Origin: a virus
Lineage: Duplodnaviria; Heunggongvirae; Uroviricota; Caudoviricetes
Virus record (IMG/VR): IMGVR_UViG_2541047932_000014
Coordinates: 1-10,970 of that record
Direction: 5' to 3' (one strand)
Length of the DNA: 10,970 nucleotides
In this document: in pieces, positions 1 through 10,970 of the stretch
Numbering within the stretch: position 1 is the first letter of the stretch
Layout of the letters: the number at the start of each line of letters is the position of its first letter
The notes under the pieces: generated by a model
Told to the model about the DNA's origin: nothing
What the model saw: the letters and a program-made list of their open reading frames with translations, nothing else
The model's database searches: none
Program-made: the position numbers and the translations under genes

Positions 1-2205
1 ACGGCGCGGGCAAGGGCAGCCGTGTACCGTGCTCAGCAGGCCGTGGCGGCAGCCCGCGGGACGGAGATGCAGATTGCTGCAGAGGCCCGTCTGGCGGCCA
101 CACAGGAACGCCTGAACAGAAATATTGCTGCCAGAAGCGCCGCCCAGAATGCGCTGAACAGTACAACGGCGGTGGGCTCACGTCTGATGACTGGTGCGTT
201 GGGACTGGTTGGTGGCGTACCCGGACTGGTGATGCTGGGGGCAGCAGCATGGTATACGCTGTACCAGAATCAGGAGCAGGCCAGGGAGTCAGCGCGCCAG
301 TATGCACTGACGATAGATGAAATCGCGCATAAAACGCCGTCAATGTCTTTGCCTGAAGCCTCAGATAATGAAGGACGAACACGGGCGGCGCTGGCAGAGC
401 AGAACCGGCTGATTGATGAACAGGCCAGCCGGGTGAAATCCCTGCAGGAAAAAATCGCTGGATATCAGTATGTTCTGGCTAACCCTGGCTGGACAACCGG
501 TGACGGATTCATGATAAACCATCTGACATCGGTGAAGACCGTGACGGAAGGGCTTTCTCAGGCAACAGAGCAGCTTGCCGTTGAGCAGTCCCGTCTGGCA
601 CAGATGCAGGAAAAAGCGCAGTCCATTCAGGATGTGCTTGCCGGGCTGGAAGACCGTCGTGTGGCGTTAATTCGTCAGCAGGCGGCAGAGCAGAATAAGG
701 TGTACCAGTCCATGCTGGTTATGAACGGTCAGCATACGGAATTCAACCGTCTGCTGGGGCTGGGTAATGAACTGCTTCAGCAGCGGCAGGGACTGGTGAA
801 TGTGCCGTTACGGCTGCCACAGGCCACTCTGGATGATAAACAGCAGAGTGCCCTGACAAAAACAGAGCGTGAGCTGGCCCTGTCCAGACTGAAAGGGGAA
901 GAAAAAGAGCGTGTCCGACTGGGGTATGCGGCGGATGACCTCGGTTTTGTGGGTGAACCGTATCAGGAGGCGAGACAACGTTATATCAGTAATGCCCTGG
1001 AAGCCTGGCGCAATAACGAGGCGAATAAACCCAAATCCCGGGGTGGAAAATCAGAGACGGAAAAAGCGGAAGACAGTTTTTCCCGGCTGCTGAAGCAGCA
1101 GAAAGAGCAACTGGCACTTGCGGGGCAGAATACAGAGCTGGCGAAGCTGAAATACCAGACTGCGCAGGGCGAACTGAAAACCCTGACGGAGATGCAGAAG
1201 CAGGAACTGCTGCGCAATGCGGCCCTGATTGACCAGCAAAAAATCCGGGAGCAGTTGCGGTCCCGGGAAGAGACCCTGAAGAATGATAATGTGGCTGCGC
1301 GTGCATCAAATGAAGCGGAACTGCTGGGGTACGGGCAGGGAGAGCGGCTCCGTGAACGCATGCGGGAGTTGCAGCAGATCCGCGACAGTTTCCGCCAGAA
1401 GGATGCGGACCTTCAGTCTCAGTATCAGACCGGGGATATCAGTGAGGATTTTTACAGACAGGCTCTGGCACAGAACGCGCAGTATCTGAGTGAACGTCTG
1501 AAAGAGCAGGAAGCCTTTTATGCCGAATCGGATGTGCAGCGTGCGGACTGGCAGAAAGGGCTGCAGGAGGGATTCAGTAACTGGGTGGATAATGCGTCCG
1601 ATTACGCCTCACAGGCAGCACAGCTGGCGACGGAGGGTATCTCAGGGATGGTGAATAACATCACGGAGATGCTGAACGGAAATAAAGTGGAATGGCGCAG
1701 CTGGGCCTCATCAGTGCTGCAGGAAATATCAAAAGTTCTTATGAATGCCGCGATTGTCAACGGGATCAAGACGGCGGCAAACAGTATGTCCGGAGCGGGA
1801 GGATTTATCGGCAGTATTGGTAGCTGGCTGGGCGGTGCGGTGGCCAATGCAAAAGGCGGGGTGTATACCTCGGCAAACCTGAGTGCGTACAGCAACAGTA
1901 TTGTGGATACGCCCACGTACTTTGCCTTTGCAAAAGGGGCGGGACTGATGGGGGAGGCCGGACCTGAAGCCATTATGCCTCTGACGCGGGCGGCGGATGG
2001 CTCGCTGGGTGTGCGAGCGGTGGGCAGTATGAACGGTAGTGCGGGTCTGGTGTATTCCCCGGTCTACCATATCGCCATTCAGAATGACGGGACTAATGGC
2101 CAGATAGGGCCGGAAGCTGCGGGCACCCTTGTGCAGCTGATTGACCAGCGGGTGCAGGCGGTGATGCTGTCCATGCGACGTGACGGAGGAATGCTGAGTG
2201 GCTGA
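1..2205 (+). CDS. H: Tail tape measure protein (lambda gpH-like), 5'-partial; open from window edge, stop TGA at 2203-2205
   Basis: Frame is open from position 1 through the 727-aa track ORF (22..2205). Long Q/E/R/A-rich, coiled-coil-like sequence followed by a Gly-rich hydrophobic segment (GGFIGSIGSWLGGAVANAKGG), typical of tape measure proteins. Position immediately upstream of M-L-K-I-J as in lambda. Similarity to lambda is recalled, not searched. Confidence 0.85.
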   Translation, partial: TARARAAVYRAQQAVAAARGTEMQIAAEARLAATQERLNRNIAARSAAQNALNSTTAVGSRLMTGALGLVGGVPGLVMLGAAAWYTLYQNQEQARESARQYALTIDEIAHKTPSMSLPEASDNEGRTRAALAEQNRLIDEQASRVKSLQEKIAGYQYVLANPGWTTGDGFMINHLTSVKTVTEGLSQATEQLAVEQSRLAQMQEKAQSIQDVLAGLEDRRVALIRQQAAEQNKVYQSMLVMNGQHTEFNRLLGLGNELLQQRQGLVNVPLRLPQATLDDKQQSALTKTERELALSRLKGEEKERVRLGYAADDLGFVGEPYQEARQRYISNALEAWRNNEANKPKSRGGKSETEKAEDSFSRLLKQQKEQLALAGQNTELAKLKYQTAQGELKTLTEMQKQELLRNAALIDQQKIREQLRSREETLKNDNVAARASNEAELLGYGQGERLRERMRELQQIRDSFRQKDADLQSQYQTGDISEDFYRQALAQNAQYLSERLKEQEAFYAESDVQRADWQKGLQEGFSNWVDNASDYASQAAQLATEGISGMVNNITEMLNGNKVEWRSWASSVLQEISKVLMNAAIVNGIKTAANSMSGAGGFIGSIGSWLGGAVANAKGGVYTSANLSAYSNSIVDTPTYFAFAKGAGLMGEAGPEAIMPLTRAADGSLGVRAVGSMNGSAGLVYSPVYHIAIQNDGTNGQIGPEAAGTLVQLIDQRVQAVMLSMRRDGGMLSG

Positions 2206-2539
2206 GATAAAAACGCTGCATCTGGTCCCGCGTGAAGGGATGCAGGTGAGTGAGAAGCCGTCGGTGGTGAGGGTGCGGTTTGGTGACGGTTATGAACAGC
2301 GCCGCCCCACAGGGCTGAATCCTCAACTGAAGACGTTTCAGGCGGTGTTCCGGGTGACGGATGAGTCAACCCGGCGCTGGCTGGAAGAGTTTTTATCGTG
2401 GCATGGTGGTTACCGTGCCTTTTTGTGGCGACCGCCGAAACATAACCGGACGGTGAGGGTTGTGTGCCGTGAGTGGAGTGTCACGGATAATGCCCGGTAC
2501 AGTGATTTCAGTTGCACGATAGAGCAGGTGGTGAACTGA
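2198..2539 (+). CDS. M: Minor tail protein M (lambda gpM-like), GTG start overlapping the H stop
   Basis: 113-aa ORF with motifs I recognise from lambda gpM (VRFGDGY.QR, FLW.PP, EQVVN C-terminus). 8-nt overlap with the H 3' end and an ATGA-type stop/start overlap with L suggest translational coupling. Confidence 0.88.
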   Translation: MAEIKTLHLVPREGMQVSEKPSVVRVRFGDGYEQRRPTGLNPQLKTFQAVFRVTDESTRRWLEEFLSWHGGYRAFLWRPPKHNRTVRVVCREWSVTDNARYSDFSCTIEQVVN

Positions 2540-3237
2540 TGCAGGATATTCACGAAGAAAGCCTGAACGAGTCGGTTAAATCAGAGCAGTCACCGCGGGT
2601 GGTGCTCTGGGAAATTGACCTGACGGTGCAGGGTGGTGAGCGGTATTTTTTCTGCAATGAGCTGAATGAAAAAGGGGAGGCGGTTACCTGGCAGGGGCGG
2701 CAATATCAGGCATACCCGATTGACGGCAGTGGCTTTGAGATGAACGGGAAGGGCAGCAGTGCCCGCCCGTCGCTGACGGTGTCCAATCTGTTTGGTCTGG
2801 TCACCGGGATGGCGGAGGACCTGCAGAGTCTGGTGGGGGCCACGGTGGTCCGCCGCCGGGTGTATGCCCGTTTTCTGGATGCGGTGAATTTCGTTGCGGG
2901 CAATCCGTCGGCGGACCCGGAGCAGGAGCTGAGTGACCGCTGGGTGGTGGAGCAGATGTCGCAGCTGACAGCCATGACGGCCTCGTTTGTGCTGGCCACA
3001 CCGACCGAGACGGACGGGGCGCTGTTTCCCGGTCGCATCATGCTGGCGAACACCTGTATGTGGGATTACCGGGGAGATGAATGCGGGTATAACGGTCCTG
3101 CGGTGGCGGATGAGTTCGACAACCCCACCACGGATATCCGTAAGGACAGATGCAGCAAGTGCATGCGCGGGTGTGAGATGCGCGGCATGGTGGCTAATTT
3201 TGGCGGTTTCCTTTCCATTAACAAACTTTCGCAGTAA
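2539..3237 (+). CDS. L: Minor tail protein L (lambda gpL-like), tail tip complex
   Basis: The track ORF starts at 2512, but the ATG at 2539 gives a 232-aa protein beginning MQDIHEESLNE, matching the lambda gpL N-terminus (MQDI...) and its length. Cysteine cluster near the C-terminus (NTCMW, DECGY, DRCSKC, RGCEMRG) and the FGGFLSINKLSQ ending are present. The start overlaps the M stop (ATGA). Confidence 0.93.
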   Translation: MQDIHEESLNESVKSEQSPRVVLWEIDLTVQGGERYFFCNELNEKGEAVTWQGRQYQAYPIDGSGFEMNGKGSSARPSLTVSNLFGLVTGMAEDLQSLVGATVVRRRVYARFLDAVNFVAGNPSADPEQELSDRWVVEQMSQLTAMTASFVLATPTETDGALFPGRIMLANTCMWDYRGDECGYNGPAVADEFDNPTTDIRKDRCSKCMRGCEMRGMVANFGGFLSINKLSQ

Positions 3238-3242
3238 ATCCA

Positions 3243-3986
3243 ATGACACAGACAGAATCAGCGATTCTGGCGCATGCCCGGCGGTGTGTGCCTGCGGAGT
3301 CGTGCGGCTTCGTGGTGAGAACGCCGGAGGGGGAGCGGTATATCCCTTGTGTGAATATCTCTGCAGAGCCGGAGGCGTATTTTCGTATTGCACCGGAAGA
3401 CTGGCTGCGGGCAGAGATGCAGGGGGAGATTGTGGCACTGGTCCACAGTCATCCCGGTGGTCTGCCCTGGCTGAGCGAGGCCGACCGGCGGCTGCAGATA
3501 AAAAGTGCACTGTCCTGGTGGCTGGTCTGCCGGGGGGAAATTCATAAATTCCGCTGTGTGCCACATCTGACAGGACGGCGCTTTGAGCACGGGGTGACGG
3601 ACTGTTACACGCTGTTCCGGGATGCCTACCATCTGGCGGGAATTGATATGCCGGATTTTGAGCGTGAGGATGACTGGTGGCGCAACGGTCAGAACCTGTA
3701 CCTGGACAATATGGAGGCGACTGGTTTTTACAGGATTTCCCTGCCTTCCGCACAGCCTGGCGATATCCTGCTGTGCTGCTTTGGCGCATCGGTGGCCAAT
3801 CATGCCGCCATATACTGCGGCAACGGTGAGCTGCTTCACCATCTGCCTGAACAACTGAGTAAACGGGAGAGGTATTCCGAAAAATGGCAACGACGAACGC
3901 ATTCAGCCTGGCGTCACCGCCACTGGCACGCATCTGCCTTCACGGGGATTTACAACGATTTGGCCGCCGCCTCAGCCTGTATGTGA
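3243..3986 (+). CDS. K: Tail tip assembly protein K (lambda gpK-like), JAMM/MPN plus NlpC/P60-like domains
   Basis: JAMM metalloprotease motif H-x-H-x7-S-x2-D is present as HSHPGGLPWLSEAD. The C-terminal half has a Cys/His arrangement compatible with NlpC/P60 (GVTDCYTLF ... NHAAIY ... HH). The 3' end overlaps the I start by 103 nt in another frame, as I recall for lambda K/I. The true start may be downstream of 3243, because lambda K is shorter in my memory. Confidence 0.85.
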   Translation: MTQTESAILAHARRCVPAESCGFVVRTPEGERYIPCVNISAEPEAYFRIAPEDWLRAEMQGEIVALVHSHPGGLPWLSEADRRLQIKSALSWWLVCRGEIHKFRCVPHLTGRRFEHGVTDCYTLFRDAYHLAGIDMPDFEREDDWWRNGQNLYLDNMEATGFYRISLPSAQPGDILLCCFGASVANHAAIYCGNGELLHHLPEQLSKRERYSEKWQRRTHSAWRHRHWHASAFTGIYNDLAAASACM

Positions 3987-4564
3987 ACACGGCAGCGGAA
4001 GCCATTCGCGCCCTGTCGATGCAGATGCCGGGCTTTCGCCGTCAGATGAACGAAGGCTGGTACCAGATACGTATTGCCGGTGATGACACGGCACCGGAGG
4101 CGGTGTATGCCCGTCTTCACGAACAGCTGGGTGAGGGAACGGTCATCCACATTGTGCCGCGACTGGCCGGGGCCAGAAAGGGTGGACTGCAGATTGTGCT
4201 GGGGGCGGCAGCCATCGTGGGGTCGTTCTTCACTGCCGGAGGCTCGATGGCGTTATGGGGTACAGCCCTGGCAGCCGGCGGTTTTTCTGCCACCACGATG
4301 CTGTTTTCACTGGGTGCCAGTATGATTCTGGGTGGTGTGGCCCAGATGCTGGCACCGAAGGCAAAAACACCGGATTACCGCGCAACGGATAACGGTAAAC
4401 AGAACACGTATTTTTCCTCACTGGACAATATGATTGCCCAGGGTAACCCGATGCCGGTGCCTTACGGGGAAATGCTGGTTGGTTCACGACGGATATCCCA
4501 GGACATCAGCACCCGTGATGAAGGCGGGGGCGGAAAGGTCGTGGTTATCGGGCGGCAGGGGTAA
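3884..4564 (+). CDS. I: Tail tip assembly protein I (lambda gpI-like)
   Basis: 226-aa ORF. N-terminus (ARICLHGDLQRFGRR), Gly/Ala-rich hydrophobic core and C-terminal block (TDNGKQNTYFSSLDNM.AQGN) match my memory of lambda gpI. Stop TAA at 4562-4564. Confidence 0.9.
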   Translation: MATTNAFSLASPPLARICLHGDLQRFGRRLSLYVNTAAEAIRALSMQMPGFRRQMNEGWYQIRIAGDDTAPEAVYARLHEQLGEGTVIHIVPRLAGARKGGLQIVLGAAAIVGSFFTAGGSMALWGTALAAGGFSATTMLFSLGASMILGGVAQMLAPKAKTPDYRATDNGKQNTYFSSLDNMIAQGNPMPVPYGEMLVGSRRISQDISTRDEGGGGKVVVIGRQG

Positions 4565-4565
4565 A

Positions 4566-4610
4566 AAGAATAAAAAAATCCCGCAGAGTTGCGGAACTGC
4601 GGGAGCGTTA
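4566..4610 (-). terminator. Rho-independent terminator oriented for minus-strand transcription
   Basis: Hairpin CCCGCAG..CTGCGGG (about 4580-4603; 7-bp GC-rich stem, extendable by TT/AA pairing around a GCGG loop). On the + strand it is preceded by the A-run aaagaataaaaaaat, so on the minus strand the stem is followed by ATTTTTTTATTCTTT. On the + strand it is followed by agcgttacg, which is not U-rich. Confidence 0.6.
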
Positions 4611-4639
4611 CGAAGATTAAGTGTAAGGAATTATTCTTA

Positions 4640-6012
<1,373 letters not shown>

Positions 6013-6030
6013 ATCGGTGGGCATGAAAGA

Positions 6031-6069
6031 AAACCCCGGTATCTGCTGATACCGGGGTTTCTCTTTAGC
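6031..6069. terminator. Perfect 13-bp inverted repeat hairpin, possible bidirectional intrinsic terminator between the IS and J
   Basis: AAACCCCGGTATC tgct GATACCGGGGTTT (6031-6060), followed by CTCTTT on the + strand and preceded by GAAAGA (T-rich on the minus strand). Confidence 0.5.
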
Positions 6070-6163
6070 ATGACAGAAATGTGTTTCATGCTTTTCGGGC
6101 GAAGGATATCCGACTTCTGTACGGAATGGCAAGTGGCGGTTAATTTATTCAGGGGAAGGCTGT

Positions 6164-9100
6164 ATGGGAAAAGGTGGCGGTAAGGCACACACGCCTCGTG
6201 AGGCGAAGGATAATCTCAAATCCACGCAGATGATGAGCGTGATTGATGCGATTGGTGAGGGACCGATAGAAGGTCCGGTGAAGGGACTGCAGAGTATCCT
6301 GGTGAACAAAACCCCGCTGACGGACACGGACGGTAATCCCGTGATACACGGTGTGACGGCGGTCTGGCGCGCCGGGGAGCAGGAGCAGACACCACCGGAA
6401 GGCTTTGAGTCCTCCGGTGCTGAAACCGGACTGGGCGTGGAAGTGACGAAGGCAAAACCGGTGACGCGCACCATTACGTCCGCGAACATTGACCGCCTGC
6501 GGGTTACCTTCGGGGTGCAGTCACTGGTGCAGACCACGTCAAAGGGCGACCGTAATCCTTCCTCTGTCCGGATTCTGATTCAGTTACAGCGTAATGGCCG
6601 CTGGGTGACGGAAAAGGACGTCACCATTAACGGCAAGACCACCTCACAGTTCCTGGCCTCGGTGATTCTGGATAATCTGCCTCCCCGGCCCTTTAACATC
6701 CGGATGGTCAGGGAGACGGCGGACAGCACCACGGACCAGCTGCAGAATAAGACGCTGTGGTCGTCATACACCGAAATCATCGATGTGAAACAGTGCTACC
6801 CGAACACGGCCATTGTGGGGCTGCAGGTGGATGCGGAGCAGTTTGGCGGTCAGCAGATGACGGTGAACTACCATATCCGAGGTCGCATCATCCAGGTGCC
6901 GTCAAACTATGACCCGGAAAAACGCACGTACAGCGGCATCTGGGACGGCAGTCTGAAACCGGCATACAGCAACAACCCGGCCTGGTGCCTGTGGGACATG
7001 CTGACTCACCCGCGCTACGGCATGGGAAAACGTCTGGGGGCGGCGGATGTTGACAAGTGGGCGCTGTATGCCATCGGGCAGTACTGCGACCAGACGGTCC
7101 CGGATGGTTTCGGGGGCACAGAGCCGCGGATGACCTTTAATGCGTACCTGTCACAACAGCGTAAGGCGTGGGACGTTCTCAGTGATTTCTGCTCGGCGAT
7201 GCGCTGTATGCCGGTATGGAACGGCCAGACGCTGACGTTCGTTCAGGACCGCCCGTCGGATGTGGTGTGGCCGTACACCAACTGCGATGTGGTGGTGGAT
7301 GATAACGGCGTGGGGTTTCGCTACAGCTTCAGCGCCCTGAAGGACCGGCACACGGCGGTGGAGGTGAATTACACCGACCCGCAGAACGGCTGGCAGACCT
7401 CCACGGAACTGGTGGAAGACCCGGAAGCCATACTGCGCTACGGGCGCAACCTGCTGAAGATGGATGCGTTCGGTTGCACCAGTCGCGGTCAGGCCCACCG
7501 TGCCGGGCTGTGGGTGATAAAGACCGGACTGCTGGAAACGCAGACGGTGGATTTCACGCTCGGGTCACAGGGGCTGCGTCACACACCCGGTGACATTATT
7601 GAAATCTGTGATAACGACTATGCCGGGACCATGACCGGCGGACGTATCCTGTCCATCGATGCCGCCAGCCGCACCCTGACACTGGACCGTGAGGTGACCC
7701 TGCCGGAGACAGGTGCCGCCACGGTGAACCTGATTAACGGTGGCGGTAAGCCGGTGAGCGTGGCCATCACCGCACACCCCGCGCCGGACCGGATACAGGT
7801 CAGTACCCTGCCGGATGGTGTGGAGACATACGGTGTGTGGGGGCTTTCCCTGCCGTCACTGCGTCGTCGCCTGTTTCGCTGTGTCTGCATCCGGGAAAAC
7901 ACGGACGGCACTTTTGCCATCACGGCAGTGCAGCATGTGCCGGAAAAAGAAGCCATCGTGGATAACGGGGCCAGCTTTGAGCCGCAGTCAGGCACCCTGA
8001 ACAGCGTTATTCCACCGGCAGTGCAGCACCTGACGGTGGAGGTGAGCGCGGCTGACGGTCAGTATCTGGCACAGGCGAAATGGGACACGCCGAGGGTGGT
8101 GAAGGGCGTGCGCTTCAGTCTGCGCCTGACCAGTGGAAGCGGTGAGAACAGCCGCCTGCTGACCACCGCCATCACTGCCGATACGGAGCACCGTTTCAGT
8201 GGCCTGCCGCTCGGGGAATACACCCTGACGGTGCGGGCGATAAACAGCTATGGCCAGCAGGGTGAACCTGCCACCACCACCTTCCGGATTGCCGCACCGG
8301 CAGCACCGTCGCGGATTGAGCTGACGCCGGGCTATTTTCAGATAACCGCCACGCCGCATCTTGCCGTTTATGACCCGACGGTACAGTTTGAGTTCTGGTT
8401 CTCGGAAAAGCGGATTGCGGATATCAGGCAGGTTGAAACCGCAGCCCGCTATCTTGGCTCGGCGCTGTACTGGATAGCTGCCAGTATCAATATCAAACCG
8501 GGCCATGATTATTATTTTTATATCCGCAGTGTGAATACTGTTGGCAAATCGGCATTTGTGGAGGCTGTTGGCCAGCCGAGTGATGATGCATCCGGCTATC
8601 TGGATTTTTTCAAAGGAGAGATAGGGAAAACCCATCTGGCTCAGGAGTTGTGGACGCAGATTGATAACGGTCAGCTTGCGCCTGATCTGGCTGAAATCAG
8701 GACGTCCATTACGAATGTCAGCAATGAAATCACGCAGACCGTCAATAAAAAACTGGAAAATCAGAGCGCGGCAATCCAGCAGATACAGAAAGTTCAGGTT
8801 GATACAAATAATAACCTGAACAGCATGTGGGCCGTGAAACTGCAGCAGATGAAGGACGGACGCCTTTATATTGCGGGTATCGGAGCCGGTATTGAGAATA
8901 CGCCAGCAGGTATGCAGAGTCAGGTGCTTCTGGCTGCTGACCGGATTGCGATGATTAATCCTGCGAATGGCAACACAAAGCCGATGTTTGTTGGTCAGGG
9001 CGATCAGATATTCATGAACGAAGTGTTCCTGAAATACCTGACGGCTCCCACCATTACCAGTGGCGGTAATCCTCCGGCATTTTCCCTGACACCGGACGGG

Positions 9101-9637
9101 CGGCTGACGGCGAAAAATACCGATATCAGCGGTAACGTGAATGCGAACTCCGGGACGCTCAACAACGTCACGATTAACGAAAACTGTCGGGTTCTGGGAA
9201 AACTGTCCGCCAACCAGATTGAAGGCGATCTCGTTAAAACAGTGGGCAAAGCTTTCCCCCGGGACTCCCGTGCACCGGAGCGGTGGCCATCAGGGACCAT
9301 TACCGTCAGGGTTTATGACGATCAGCCGTTTGACCGGCAAATTGTTATTCCGGCGGTGGCATTCAGTGGCGCTAAGCATGAGAGAGAGCATACTGATATT
9401 TACTCCTCATGCCGTCTGATAGTGCGGAAAAACGGTGCTGAAATTTATAACCGTACCGCGCTGGATAATACGCTGATTTACAGTGGTGTTATTGATATGC
9501 CTGCCGGTCACGGTCACATGACGCTGGAGTTTTCGGTGTCAGCATGGCTGGTAAATAACTGGTATCCCACAGCAAGTATCAGCGATTTGCTGGTTGTGGT
9601 GATGAAGAAAGCCACCGCAGGCATCAGTATCAGCTGA
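6164..9637 (+). CDS. J: Tail tip attachment / central tail fiber protein J (host specificity protein, lambda gpJ-like)
   Basis: 1157-aa ORF. The N-terminus [22 protein letters not shown] and many internal blocks ([97 protein letters not shown]) match lambda J as I recall it. Good RBS GGGGAAGG upstream of the ATG. Confidence 0.96.
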
Positions 9638-9656
9638 ATTTTATAACCCATATACG

Positions 9657-9683
9657 GGCGCCAGAAATGGCGCCTTTTTTATT
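9657..9683 (+). terminator. Rho-independent terminator immediately downstream of J
   Basis: GGCGCC agaaat GGCGCC (palindromic 6-bp GC stem) followed by TTTTTTATT, starting 20 nt after the J stop. Confidence 0.7.
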
Positions 9684-9704
9684 GCAGAAAAGCGAGAGGT
9701 AATT

Positions 9705-10304
9705 ATGCGTAAAGTTTGTGCAGCCATTTTGTCCGCAGCCATCTGTCTGTCCGTATCCGGTGCGCCTGCATGGGCGTCTGAACATCAGTCCACACTGAGC
9801 GCGGGGTATCTTCATGCCCGTACGAACGCTCCCGGCAGCGATAATCTGAACGGGATTAACGTGAAATACCGTTATGAGTTTACGGACGCGCTGGGGCTGA
9901 TTACGTCCTTCAGTTATGCCAATGCTGAGGATGAGCAAAAAACGCACTACAGCGATACCCGCTGGCATGAAGATTCCGTGCGTAACCGCTGGTTCAGCGT
10001 GATAGCGGGGCCGTCTGTGCGCGTGAATGAATGGTTCAGCGCGTATGCGATGGCGGGTGTGTCTTACAGCCGTGTGTCGACTTTCTCCGGGGATTATCTC
10101 CGCGTAACTGACAACAAGGGGAAAACGCACGATGTGCTGACCGGAAGTGATGACGGTCGCCACAGCAACACGTCTCTGGCGTGGGGGGCTGGCGTGCAGT
10201 TTAACCCGACCGAATCCGTGACCATTGACCTTGCTTATGAAGGTTCCGGTAGTGGCGACTGGCGAACGGATGCATTTATTGTTGGTATCGGATACCGTTT
10301 CTGA
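9705..10304 (+). CDS. lom: Outer membrane protein Lom (Ail/Lom family 8-strand beta-barrel), lysogenic-conversion-type gene
   Basis: 199-aa ORF with signal peptide MRKVCAAILSAAICLSVSGAPAWA, a terminal aromatic residue (GIGYRF) typical of outer membrane beta-barrels, and alternating amphipathic strands. Position between J and stf as in lambda. RBS GAGAGG. Confidence 0.93.
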   Translation: MRKVCAAILSAAICLSVSGAPAWASEHQSTLSAGYLHARTNAPGSDNLNGINVKYRYEFTDALGLITSFSYANAEDEQKTHYSDTRWHEDSVRNRWFSVIAGPSVRVNEWFSAYAMAGVSYSRVSTFSGDYLRVTDNKGKTHDVLTGSDDGRHSNTSLAWGAGVQFNPTESVTIDLAYEGSGSGDWRTDAFIVGIGYRF

Positions 10305-10410
10305 CAACAGACGCCGATTTATCTTCTGTAAATATTGTTATGATACGCAGGTTCATCCACCTTATGGGGTGAACTGCGTTTGAGGAAACGTAAAGTTACA
10401 CTGTCCTGAA

Positions 10411-10444
10411 GCCCGTGGCGTCACTGCTGCGGGCTTTTTTTATT
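10411..10444 (+). terminator. Rho-independent terminator downstream of lom
   Basis: GC-rich hairpin GCCCGTGGCG tcac TGCTGCGGGC (with G-U pairs) followed by TTTTTTTATT. Only about 12 nt separate it from the stf start codon. Confidence 0.65.
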
Positions 10445-10455
10445 GGTGGAAAAGT

Positions 10456-10970
10456 ATGACAGTAAAAATTTCTGGCGTGCTTAAAGATGGCACAGGAAAA
10501 CCAGTACAGAACTGCACCATTGTGCTGAAGGCCAGACGAACCAGCAGCACGGTGGTGGTGAACACGGTGGCCTCTGAAAATCCGGATGAAGCCGGACGTT
10601 ACAGCATGGATGTTGAGCATGGTCAGTACAGCGTCACCCTGCTGGTTGAAGGTTTTCCGCCTTCACATGCCGGGACCATTACCGTCTATGAAGGTTCCAG
10701 ACCAGGTACGCTGAATGATTTTCTCGGTGCCATGACGGAGGATGATGTCCGACCGGAGGCACTGCGCCGTTTTGAAGTGATGGTGGAAGAGGTGGCGCGT
10801 AACGCGTCCGCAGTGGCACAGAACACGGCAGCCGCGAAGAAGTCAGCCGGCGATGCCAGCACATCAGCCCGTGAGGCGGCAACCCATGCGACTGATGCTG
10901 CAGGCTCAGCACGCGCAGCCAGCACGTCAGCCGGACAGGCCGCTTCGTCGGCTCAGTCAGCGTCTTCCAG
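10456..10970 (+). CDS. stf: Side tail fiber protein Stf (lambda Stf / orf401-like), 3'-partial, continues beyond window
   Basis: ATG at 10456; no stop before the window end. The N-terminus MTVKISGVLKDGTGKPVQNCTIVLKARR...RYSMDVEHGQYSV...GFPPSHAGTITVYE matches the lambda Stf N-terminus as I recall it, followed by the characteristic Ala/Ser/Thr-rich low-complexity region. Confidence 0.9.
   Translation, partial: MTVKISGVLKDGTGKPVQNCTIVLKARRTSSTVVVNTVASENPDEAGRYSMDVEHGQYSVTLLVEGFPPSHAGTITVYEGSRPGTLNDFLGAMTEDDVRPEALRRFEVMVEEVARNASAVAQNTAAAKKSAGDASTSAREAATHATDAAGSARAASTSAGQAASSAQSASS

Follow-up and report, generated by a model that had tools for sequence, protein, structure and literature searches.

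The gene for the tip attachment protein J in the analysed window (10,970 nucleotides; positions 1 to 10,970 of IMG/VR record IMGVR_UViG_2541047932_000014) loses G+C in its 3' third, which raises the question of whether this region was gained by exchange and which receptor it recognizes. Modular exchange of J tips among lambdoid phages is textbook knowledge. An earlier sequence-only reading of this DNA had taken the compositional shift, together with a C-terminus unlike that of lambda, to fit mosaic exchange of the host-specificity determinant. We consider it very probable that J of this E. coli prophage is an ordinary lambda-family tip attachment protein built from exchangeable segments, with a tip of the '1A2' class, OmpC as its predicted receptor, and a G+C step that is family-wide.

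The gene (positions 6164 to 9637, plus strand) was delimited from the list of open reading frames, Pfam matches, and DNA identity, and its reading frame of 1157 amino acids is intact. It matches six gpJ-specific Pfam families (FNIII-A_GpJ, Phage-tail_3, Ig_J, Ig_J_second, Phage_Tail_Tip, and Ig_GpJ_C), all over cut-off and in the order hub, FNIII-1, FNIII-2, shaft/prism, and C-terminal Ig-like receptor-binding domain (RBD). The protein aligns end-to-end with lambda J (NC_001416) and matches the structures of lambda gpJ (PDB 8iyk, 8xcj) and A8 gpJ (9wca) with E = 1e-165 or better. Open reading frames, called genes, and Pfam matches give the tail gene order H-M-L-K-I-J-lom-stf as in lambda, with an insertion sequence (IS) between I and J. 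Domain set and gene order place J among the lambda-family tip attachment proteins, also known as central tail fibres. As in lambda, the next gene 3' of J is lom (9705 to 10304, plus strand; open reading frame and Pfam Ail_Lom), encoding an Ail/Lom outer-membrane beta-barrel with weak NCBIfam matches of the OmpX/Rck type. Between J and lom lies a terminator-like hairpin with a T-run (9656 to 9685, plus strand), a candidate from a consensus scan only.

Comparison with nine J alleles per 100 nt, including lambda, 434, mEp460, PhiR55_1, PhiR5_1, PhiR49_2, Stx2a_JNE122137, Stx1_14040, and VT1-Sakai, revealed that the nearest relative changes along the gene. The identity table and mismatch maps place partner switches near 8270, 8563, and 9090, which fall, respectively, at the border between FNIII-1 and FNIII-2, where the alpha-helical shaft begins, and at a conserved beta-prism joint (shaft and prism domain names and boundaries follow the lambda gpJ structure paper, PMC11101478). 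All segments lie on the plus strand. Segment A (6164 to 8269), assigned by identity and informative sites, comprises the hub domains and FNIII-1 and is of EHEC-prophage type: most of its 100-nt stretches share 87-100% of positions with Stx2a_JNE122137, PhiR5_1, and Stx1_14040, and it is 53-92% identical to lambda, 434, mEp460, and PhiR55_1, with 40 informative sites agreeing with lambda against 460 with Stx2a_JNE. Segment B (8270 to 8563), delimited on the same evidence, is the FNIII-2 domain (Pfam Ig_J_second, aa 714-816) and is lambda-like, being 89-95% identical to lambda, 434, mEp460, and PhiR55_1, 99-100% to VT1-Sakai, and 54-81% to Stx2a_JNE, PhiR5_1, Stx1_14040, and PhiR49_2; here 74 informative sites side with lambda and 11 with Stx2a_JNE. 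The near-identity to lambda previously noticed around 8280-8560 is borne out, since aa 699-798 (nt 8258-8557) share 92% of the protein and 89-95% of the DNA with lambda J.

Segment C (8564 to 9088, by identity) covers the alpha-helical shaft and upper beta-prism of the central fibre and is of mEp460/PhiR55_1 type, with 88-100% identity to PhiR55_1 and mEp460, 12-82% to lambda, and 57-73% to Stx2a_JNE. The shaft segment, which among the J alleles measures 416, 500, or 719 nt, has 500 nt here against 416 nt in lambda, and about 25 extra residues fall within the divergent stretch aa 799-948. Divergence from lambda begins at about 8563 and is broken by a conserved joint at 9008-9163, where aa 949-998 of the beta-prism are 90% identical. 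Within this joint, segment D (9064 to 9163, by identity; marked by a 40-residue stretch) in the lower beta-prism is 72-99% identical to all nine alleles, and the switch at about 9090 is seen relative to Stx2a_JNE, PhiR5_1, and mEp460, suggesting that segment D is a recombination joint. The fusion point of the published chimeras (lambda aa 964, about 9131 here) lies inside the same segment (PMC11338833). Segment E (9131 to 9634, by identity) is the receptor-binding tip, an Ig-like RBD (Pfam Ig_GpJ_C, aa 1027-1157) of the '1A2' class. Its DNA is 97-100% identical to VT1-Sakai, Stx2a_JNE, PhiR55_1, and PhiR5_1 and about 50% identical to lambda, 434, and mEp460; the RBD identity matrix was built without Stx1_14040 and PhiR49_2, in which the anchor motif was not found and which were valued from other alignments.

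Contingency tests on informative sites in these segments gave p-values from 2e-84 to 1e-128. The sites at which J agrees with mEp460 versus Stx2a_JNE number 43/467 in segment A, 79/13 in B, 151/13 in C, and 5/142 in E (chi-square 595, p = 1e-128). J is mosaic, and its nearest relative changes along the gene beyond chance. The proposal of a mosaic exchange in the host-specificity region thus holds for the mosaic 3' third and the non-lambda tip; as one event it does not, for the exchange, as read from the alignments, is not a single swap of the last third of J, and at least three segments are separately exchangeable.

This combination of segments, judged by sequence identity, is already known. 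VT1-Sakai (Sp15 of E. coli O157:H7 Sakai, AP000400) and the PPompW prophages (LC5678xx) carry it at 95-100% identity and share the whole arrangement with J (DNA 95-96% identical over 3474 nt and 96.4% over 8400-9637; protein 98.7% identical over the last 159 aa). Three differences set this copy apart: the VT1-Sakai J is split by a frameshift whereas the frame here is intact, an IS3-family element lies upstream of J, and the patch 8564-8663 is 84% identical to VT1-Sakai against 99-100% to PhiR55_1 and mEp460.

The compositional shift itself is real. G+C falls from 0.603 (6164-8399) to 0.502 (8400-9637), with 0.454 in the AT-rich patch 8580-8830, which codes for a helix rich in Asn, Gln, and Ile. 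The profile is not flat, and the 5' two-thirds of J are G+C-rich like the other tail genes H, M, L, K, and I (0.565-0.593), as the sequence-only reading had described. The best single change-point, at 8333, lies slightly 5' of the suggested 8400 and has a log-likelihood ratio of 18.2, whereas 300 codon shuffles averaged 2.5 and never exceeded 7.6. From 0.604 overall and a GC3 of 0.738 in segment A, J passes to a GC3 of 0.55-0.59, and G+C at four-fold sites declines from 0.79 to 0.60-0.65. In lambda J, G+C drops from 0.59 to 0.54 at the same position, and in all ten J alleles compared, whatever their segment types, the 5' part has a G+C of 0.59-0.61 and the 3' part of 0.50-0.54.

The tip provides insights into the receptor. 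Over its last 159 aa, J shares 44% identity with J of NC_001416, confirming the impression of a C-terminus unlike that of lambda; the identity to lambda gpJ aa 974-1132 (P03749; PDB 8iyk, 8xcj, 8xck) is 43-44% and the variable stretches differ throughout, so that J resembles lambda gpJ in domain order, gene neighbourhood, and G+C step, and differs from it in the tip and in the shaft, lambda's receptor being LamB. Meanwhile, the tip (aa 989-1157) is near-identical to the 168-aa natural prophage tip that was joined to lambda gpJ aa 1-964 in the engineered chimera 1A2 (Brodel et al., Nature 2024, PMC11338833). The 1A2 sequence was machine-read from a PDF with dropped bases and compared through a frameshift-tolerant protein-to-DNA alignment, in which 156 of 164 readable residues are identical, 8 are mismatched, and 5 are unreadable. 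About 4 of the mismatches are attributable to text-recognition errors, leaving at least four likely real differences (F1067L, R1074K, S1107T, and S1155T). A direct search with 13- to 18-mers of the window DNA found no match in the supplement of the 1A2 paper, as the published tip DNA is recoded. Besides this recoding and the few tip residues, 1A2 differs from J in that everything upstream of the joint is lambda's, including a short shaft and the lambda hub.

When attached to lambda gpJ, the 1A2 piece made DNA delivery go through EDL933-type OmpC in place of LamB (PMC11338833). Both 1A2 and A8 use OmpC (PMC11338833; bioRxiv 10.1101/2025.02.28.640725), and of the two OmpC variants tested in detail, K-12 and EDL933, 1A2 uses only that of EDL933 whereas A8 uses both (PMC11338833). 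Delivery by 1A2 reached about 5% of wild-type MG1655 at MOI 50, versus 98% for wild-type lambda at MOI 174 (PMC11338833 source data), and about 98% of cells with EDL933 OmpC; it was also efficient when EDL933 ompC was supplied to a strain lacking lamB and ompC (PMC11338833). This allele-dependent assignment to OmpC, obtained with a chimera in a lambda background, is the sole experimental one for the tip class (PMC11338833; bioRxiv 10.1101/2025.02.28.640725); the literature searched reported experiments neither on this J nor on any natural phage with this tip class, and gave no receptor data for the PhiR phages that carry it. The near-identity of the tips makes OmpC the likely receptor of J, in line with the earlier suggestion of a receptor other than LamB. 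Since 1A2, which was tried with 23 ompC alleles, is sensitive to the OmpC allele, the host range of the tip is not readable from its sequence. The tip of chimera A8 (PDB 9wca, 9wcb) and of mEp460 type belongs to the same Ig-like fold family and has an identical 19-residue C-terminal motif, and at 63-67% identity (63% to A8, PDB 9wca) it represents a different class; the fold of the tip studied here is already fixed by 9wca (63% identity, E = 1e-116) and the lambda structures. A literature search found no paper describing 9wca/9wcb. The tip of phage 434, a lambda-family J that also uses OmpC (PMC11101478), is 45% identical and sits on a short shaft, representing another independent OmpC-binding class. 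Phage 21 was dropped as a native OmpC comparison, its native receptor being LamB and its J 94% identical to lambda's (PMC11336670). A 2026 receptor-prediction preprint was not applicable, as it covers GpJ of the Drexlerviridae type and not lambda-type tips.

How the G+C step arose can be weighed against these data. The step would be a mere by-product of an Asn-, Ile-, Lys-, and Gln-rich shaft and prism, devoid of historical meaning, if amino-acid usage explained it; FYMINK residues, which have AT-rich codons, do rise from 20.0% to 29.1% and GC2 is as low as 0.377 in segment C (8564-9088), but GC3 is lower by 0.15-0.19 in segments C and D+E, where G+C at four-fold sites is also down, by 0.14-0.19. 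Since synonymous sites drop as well, amino-acid composition contributes and is not the whole cause, and we regard this explanation as improbable. That same drop at synonymous sites, together with the somewhat lower G+C of segments C and E here (0.49 and 0.51, against 0.54 and 0.54 in lambda), could instead be attributed to a recent, phage-specific gain of a foreign, low-G+C receptor-binding cassette. We find such a gain highly improbable: the complete segment combination occurs at 95-100% identity in VT1-Sakai and the PPompW prophages, the onset of the step, at 8333, falls within the lambda-like block and precedes the divergence from lambda by about 230 nt, and the 3' part of J fails a test for recent compositional islands, showing no deviation from the homologous region of its relatives. 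Because lambda and the eight other alleles have their step at this same point, we regard it as a feature of the gene family, not as the trace of a recent exchange in this phage. Every allele compared, lambda's J included, has a lower G+C throughout the central-fibre part, and the earlier use of the shift as a sign of exchange therefore falls; as lambda itself has one, a G+C step inside J should not be taken as a sign of a recent swap. We tentatively suggest, as one possibility, that the step in G+C and GC3 which all alleles show where FNIII-1 meets FNIII-2 marks an old border between a mostly vertically inherited, G+C-rich hub and a circulating pool of central-fibre cassettes (FNIII-2, a variable-length shaft, prism, and tip) of E. 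coli-like composition, with the conserved stretches at about 8270, about 8563, and 9064-9163 as preferred recombination joints and with independently exchangeable shaft length.

With regard to function, the few residues that distinguish the tip from 1A2 could matter, since single substitutions in the J tips of lambda and phage 21 shift receptor use (PMC11336670), and the tip might still use LamB or some third receptor. An identity of only 43% to the lambda tip and the gap between about 5% delivery by 1A2 in wild-type MG1655 and about 98% with EDL933 OmpC (PMC11338833) speak against this, and we assign it a low probability, OmpC being the favoured receptor. A further question is whether J still functions, whatever it encodes. 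An IS3-family element (4755 to 6012, plus strand; transposase model match) occupies the I-J spacer of the late operon directly upstream of J, of which it is not part, making present expression of J uncertain. Its orfA and orfB match an IS3 transposase model, copies 99.9% identical occur on E. coli plasmids, and the prophage of E. coli WP4-W18-ESBL-09, otherwise 96-99% identical, has the empty site. The side-fibre gene appears to break off after 171 codons, and the genes beyond it are unrelated. The insertion and this apparent truncation point to a prophage in decay, whose J may be non-functional, and the closely related VT1-Sakai J is frameshifted. Against J being a relic stand its uninterrupted 1157 codons and a tip protein 99% identical to those of the plaque-forming phages PhiR5_1 and PhiR55_1 (listed host E. 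coli C). We therefore consider a relic unlikely, if far from negligible; it would be compatible with our preferred account of what the gene encodes.

In our preferred account, J combines a G+C-rich hub part (to about 8270) of EHEC-prophage type, a lambda-like FNIII-2 domain (8270-8563), a shaft and upper beta-prism (8564-9088) of the mEp460/PhiR55_1 type, and, after the conserved joint, an Ig-like tip (9131-9634) of the '1A2' class. Given the likeness to the 1A2 piece, the trimeric J tip is expected to dock on the OmpC trimer, with contacts predicted to come from the variable stretches of the RBD, and docking would then trigger the same rearrangement of shaft and prism that opens the tail, by analogy with the lambda-LamB structures.

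As a discovery this is small, the allele combination being present in sequenced O157 prophages and the tip receptor having been determined through an engineered chimera, 1A2, which now serves to deliver DNA to STEC. Of 5426 complete E. coli genomes, 3387 match the tip class of this J. The lambda tip occurs in 98 of the same 5426, all at 99% identity or higher, and the five lambda-tip records among the matches listed come from laboratory or DE3 strains. Among complete E. coli genomes it is thus the laboratory lambda tip that is rare, and these counts indicate that annotation of natural lambdoid prophages should not assume LamB as the receptor by default.

The G+C content of J, the gene of the tip attachment protein or central tail fibre (6164-9637, 1157 aa), fell from 0.603 (6164-8399) to 0.502 (8400-9637), with a patch at 8580-8830, which encodes a helix rich in Asn, Gln and Ile, reaching 0.454. 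A single change-point fit placed this step at 8333, with a log-likelihood ratio of 18.2, whereas 300 codon shuffles reached 7.6 at most. Synonymous positions were involved: across the step, GC3 went from 0.738 to 0.55-0.59, and the G+C content of four-fold sites from 0.79 to 0.60-0.65. Amino acid composition also contributes to the drop, with residues of AT-rich codons rising from 20% to 29%. Aligned with lambda J, aa 699-798 were 92% identical, aa 799-948 diverged and included about 25 extra residues, identity returned to 90% in aa 949-998 and was 44% over the final 159 aa. The sequence-only reading had described an AT-rich 3' third and a lambda-like block followed by a C-terminus unlike that of lambda, and both observations are thus confirmed.

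That reading went on to take the compositional shift as the mark of an exchanged host-specificity determinant, possibly with a receptor other than LamB. Mosaicism and a non-LamB receptor are supported by what follows, but the shift itself is not a sign of exchange. Lambda J has the step at the same gene position, with successive 300-nt windows at 0.617, 0.533 and 0.507. We aligned ten J alleles (window, lambda, 434, mEp460_4F5, VT1-Sakai, Stx2a_JNE122137, Stx1_14040, PhiR5_1, PhiR55_1 and PhiR49_2), and all ten went from a G+C content of 0.59-0.61 in the 5' part to one of 0.50-0.54 in the 3' part, regardless of their segment types. In the window, the onset lies inside the lambda-like block, some 230 nt ahead of the divergence from lambda, and corresponds to the point where the FNIII-2 domain begins (Pfam Ig_J_second, aa 714 onwards, nt 8303). 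Because all ten alleles share the step and its onset falls within the lambda-like block, it is a family property of J and no evidence for a swap in this phage.

The mosaic structure of J was shown instead by identity per 100-nt window and 10-nt mismatch maps against other J alleles, in which the nearest relatives switch along the gene. Segment A (6164 to ~8270) was close to Stx2a_JNE, PhiR5_1 and Stx1_14040 (mostly 87-100%) and distant from lambda, 434, mEp460 and PhiR55_1 (53-92%). Segment B (~8270-8563) was close to these latter four (89-95%) and to VT1-Sakai (99-100%), and distant from the segment A partners (54-81%). Segment C (8564 to ~9088), covering the shaft and upper prism, was close to PhiR55_1 and mEp460 (88-100%) and distant from lambda (12-82%), Stx2a_JNE and PhiR5_1 (57-73%); lambda and 434 share a segment length of 416 nt, the window and most other alleles have 500 nt, and PhiR49_2 has 719 nt. 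Segment D (9064-9163) was close to all alleles (72-99%), and segment E (9164-9637) to VT1-Sakai, Stx2a_JNE, PhiR55_1 and PhiR5_1 (97-100%), with lambda, 434, mEp460 and Stx1_14040 distant (~50%). Sites differing between mEp460 and Stx2a_JNE were scored by which of the two the window matched, and the counts (mEp460/Stx2a_JNE) were 43/467 for segment A, 79/13 for B, 151/13 for C and 5/142 for E (p = 1e-128, chi-square 595); four further reference pairs gave p values of 2e-84 or smaller. With domains named from lambda gpJ structures (PMC11101478), one breakpoint falls at the FNIII-1/FNIII-2 boundary, another where the alpha-helical shaft begins, and the third in a conserved beta-prism stretch just above the receptor-binding domain. 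Within segment C, a micro-patch at 8564-8663 was 84% identical to VT1-Sakai J, which otherwise matched the window at 94-100% across the 3' third (8264-9637). Against PhiR55_1 and mEp460 the patch reached 99-100%, pointing to an additional short tract of gene conversion.

A PDB sequence search with aa 699-1157 matched lambda gpJ (8iyk, 8xcj and others), outscored by A8 gpJ 713 (9wca, 9wcb). A8 and 1A2 are chimeras of natural prophage tips joined to lambda gpJ at aa 964, changing the receptor from LamB to OmpC (PMC11338833). The 1A2 gene in the supplement of that study has recoded tip DNA and was available as machine-read text with dropped bases, so a frameshift-tolerant alignment was used. Across aa 989-1157 of the window, 156 residues were identical to 1A2, 5 were unreadable and 8 mismatched, about 4 of the mismatches adjoining reading errors. 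Judged by sequence, the window tip thus belongs to the 1A2 class and is near-identical to 1A2 itself. Protein identity was 97-99% to the tips of VT1-Sakai, Stx2a_JNE, PhiR5_1 and PhiR55_1, compared with 63-67% to A8 and mEp460, 45% to 434 and 43% to lambda. The tip alignment showed that the fold core is kept across tip classes, with differences concentrated in a few stretches.

Particles with 1A2 delivered to ~5% of wild-type MG1655 vs ~98% of cells with EDL933 OmpC (PMC11338833 source data), and a follow-up preprint aimed 1A2 at O157 strains via OmpC (bioRxiv 10.1101/2025.02.28.640725). As the 1A2 chimera demonstrates, the C-terminal 168 aa suffice for a receptor switch in a lambda background; hence, differing shaft and hub alleles are not needed for specificity, nor is shaft length for receptor choice. 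Most likely, the trimeric tip would dock onto trimeric OmpC encoded by a compatible allele, and its spreading would then propagate through prism and shaft, releasing the FNIII strings and opening the tail, as in lambda-LamB structures (PMC11101478). Single substitutions can shift J-tip receptor use (PMC11336670), and we found no receptor test on a natural phage with a window-type tip in the accessible literature.

J here is an already known, very common allele. Among 5426 complete E. coli genomes, 3387 matched its tip DNA (9164-9637), 2300 records reaching at least 95%, and 53 phage records encoded tips with a protein identity of 95% or higher. Meanwhile, the lambda tip (9428-9904 of lambda record L001) was matched in 98 of these genomes and never below 99%. 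The five records listed were K-12/B laboratory or DE3 strains, and among the 5426 the lambda tip was not detected as a diverged natural allele.

The surroundings are those of a lambda-type tail module: partial H (22-2205), M, L, K and I (ending at 4564), J, lom (9705-10304) and, from 10456, the beginning of stf, which encodes the side fibre. The window is nt 1-10,970 of contig KE702283.1 (assembly GCA_000461135.1), and its closest matches were E. coli prophages at ~96% identity. The best phage-record matches were J of the VT1-Sakai and PPompW prophages, with many chromosomal prophages besides. In the longer contig record (L010, 10456-13230 examined), stf has the N-terminal domain of lambda Stf and the called gene stops after 171 codons; a 379-aa minus-strand ORF follows (11058-12197), without a match in Pfam or NCBIfam. 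With its side fibre apparently cut short or replaced, the prophage may be defective, though J is intact. Terminator-like G+C-rich hairpins with T-runs, consensus matches only, directly follow J (9656-9685) and lom (10408-10447), and the hairpin count of the region showed no excess over shuffle expectation.

In the late operon, the spacer between I and J carries an IS3-family insertion sequence of ~1.26 kb (~4755-6012; orfA 4827-5138, orfB 5258-6004), with termini TGTAGTGG...CCACTACA and flanks GTC/ATC, which probably exerts a polar effect on J expression. E. coli plasmids carry 99.9% identical copies, and a prophage of E. coli WP4-W18-ESBL-09 that is 96-99% identical has no insertion at this site. 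The remaining spacer up to J (6017-6163) contains a perfect 13-nt inverted repeat (6031-6043/6048-6060); this stretch of spacer is shared with the WP4-W18-ESBL-09 prophage and differs from its I-J counterparts in VT1-Sakai and PhiR5_1.
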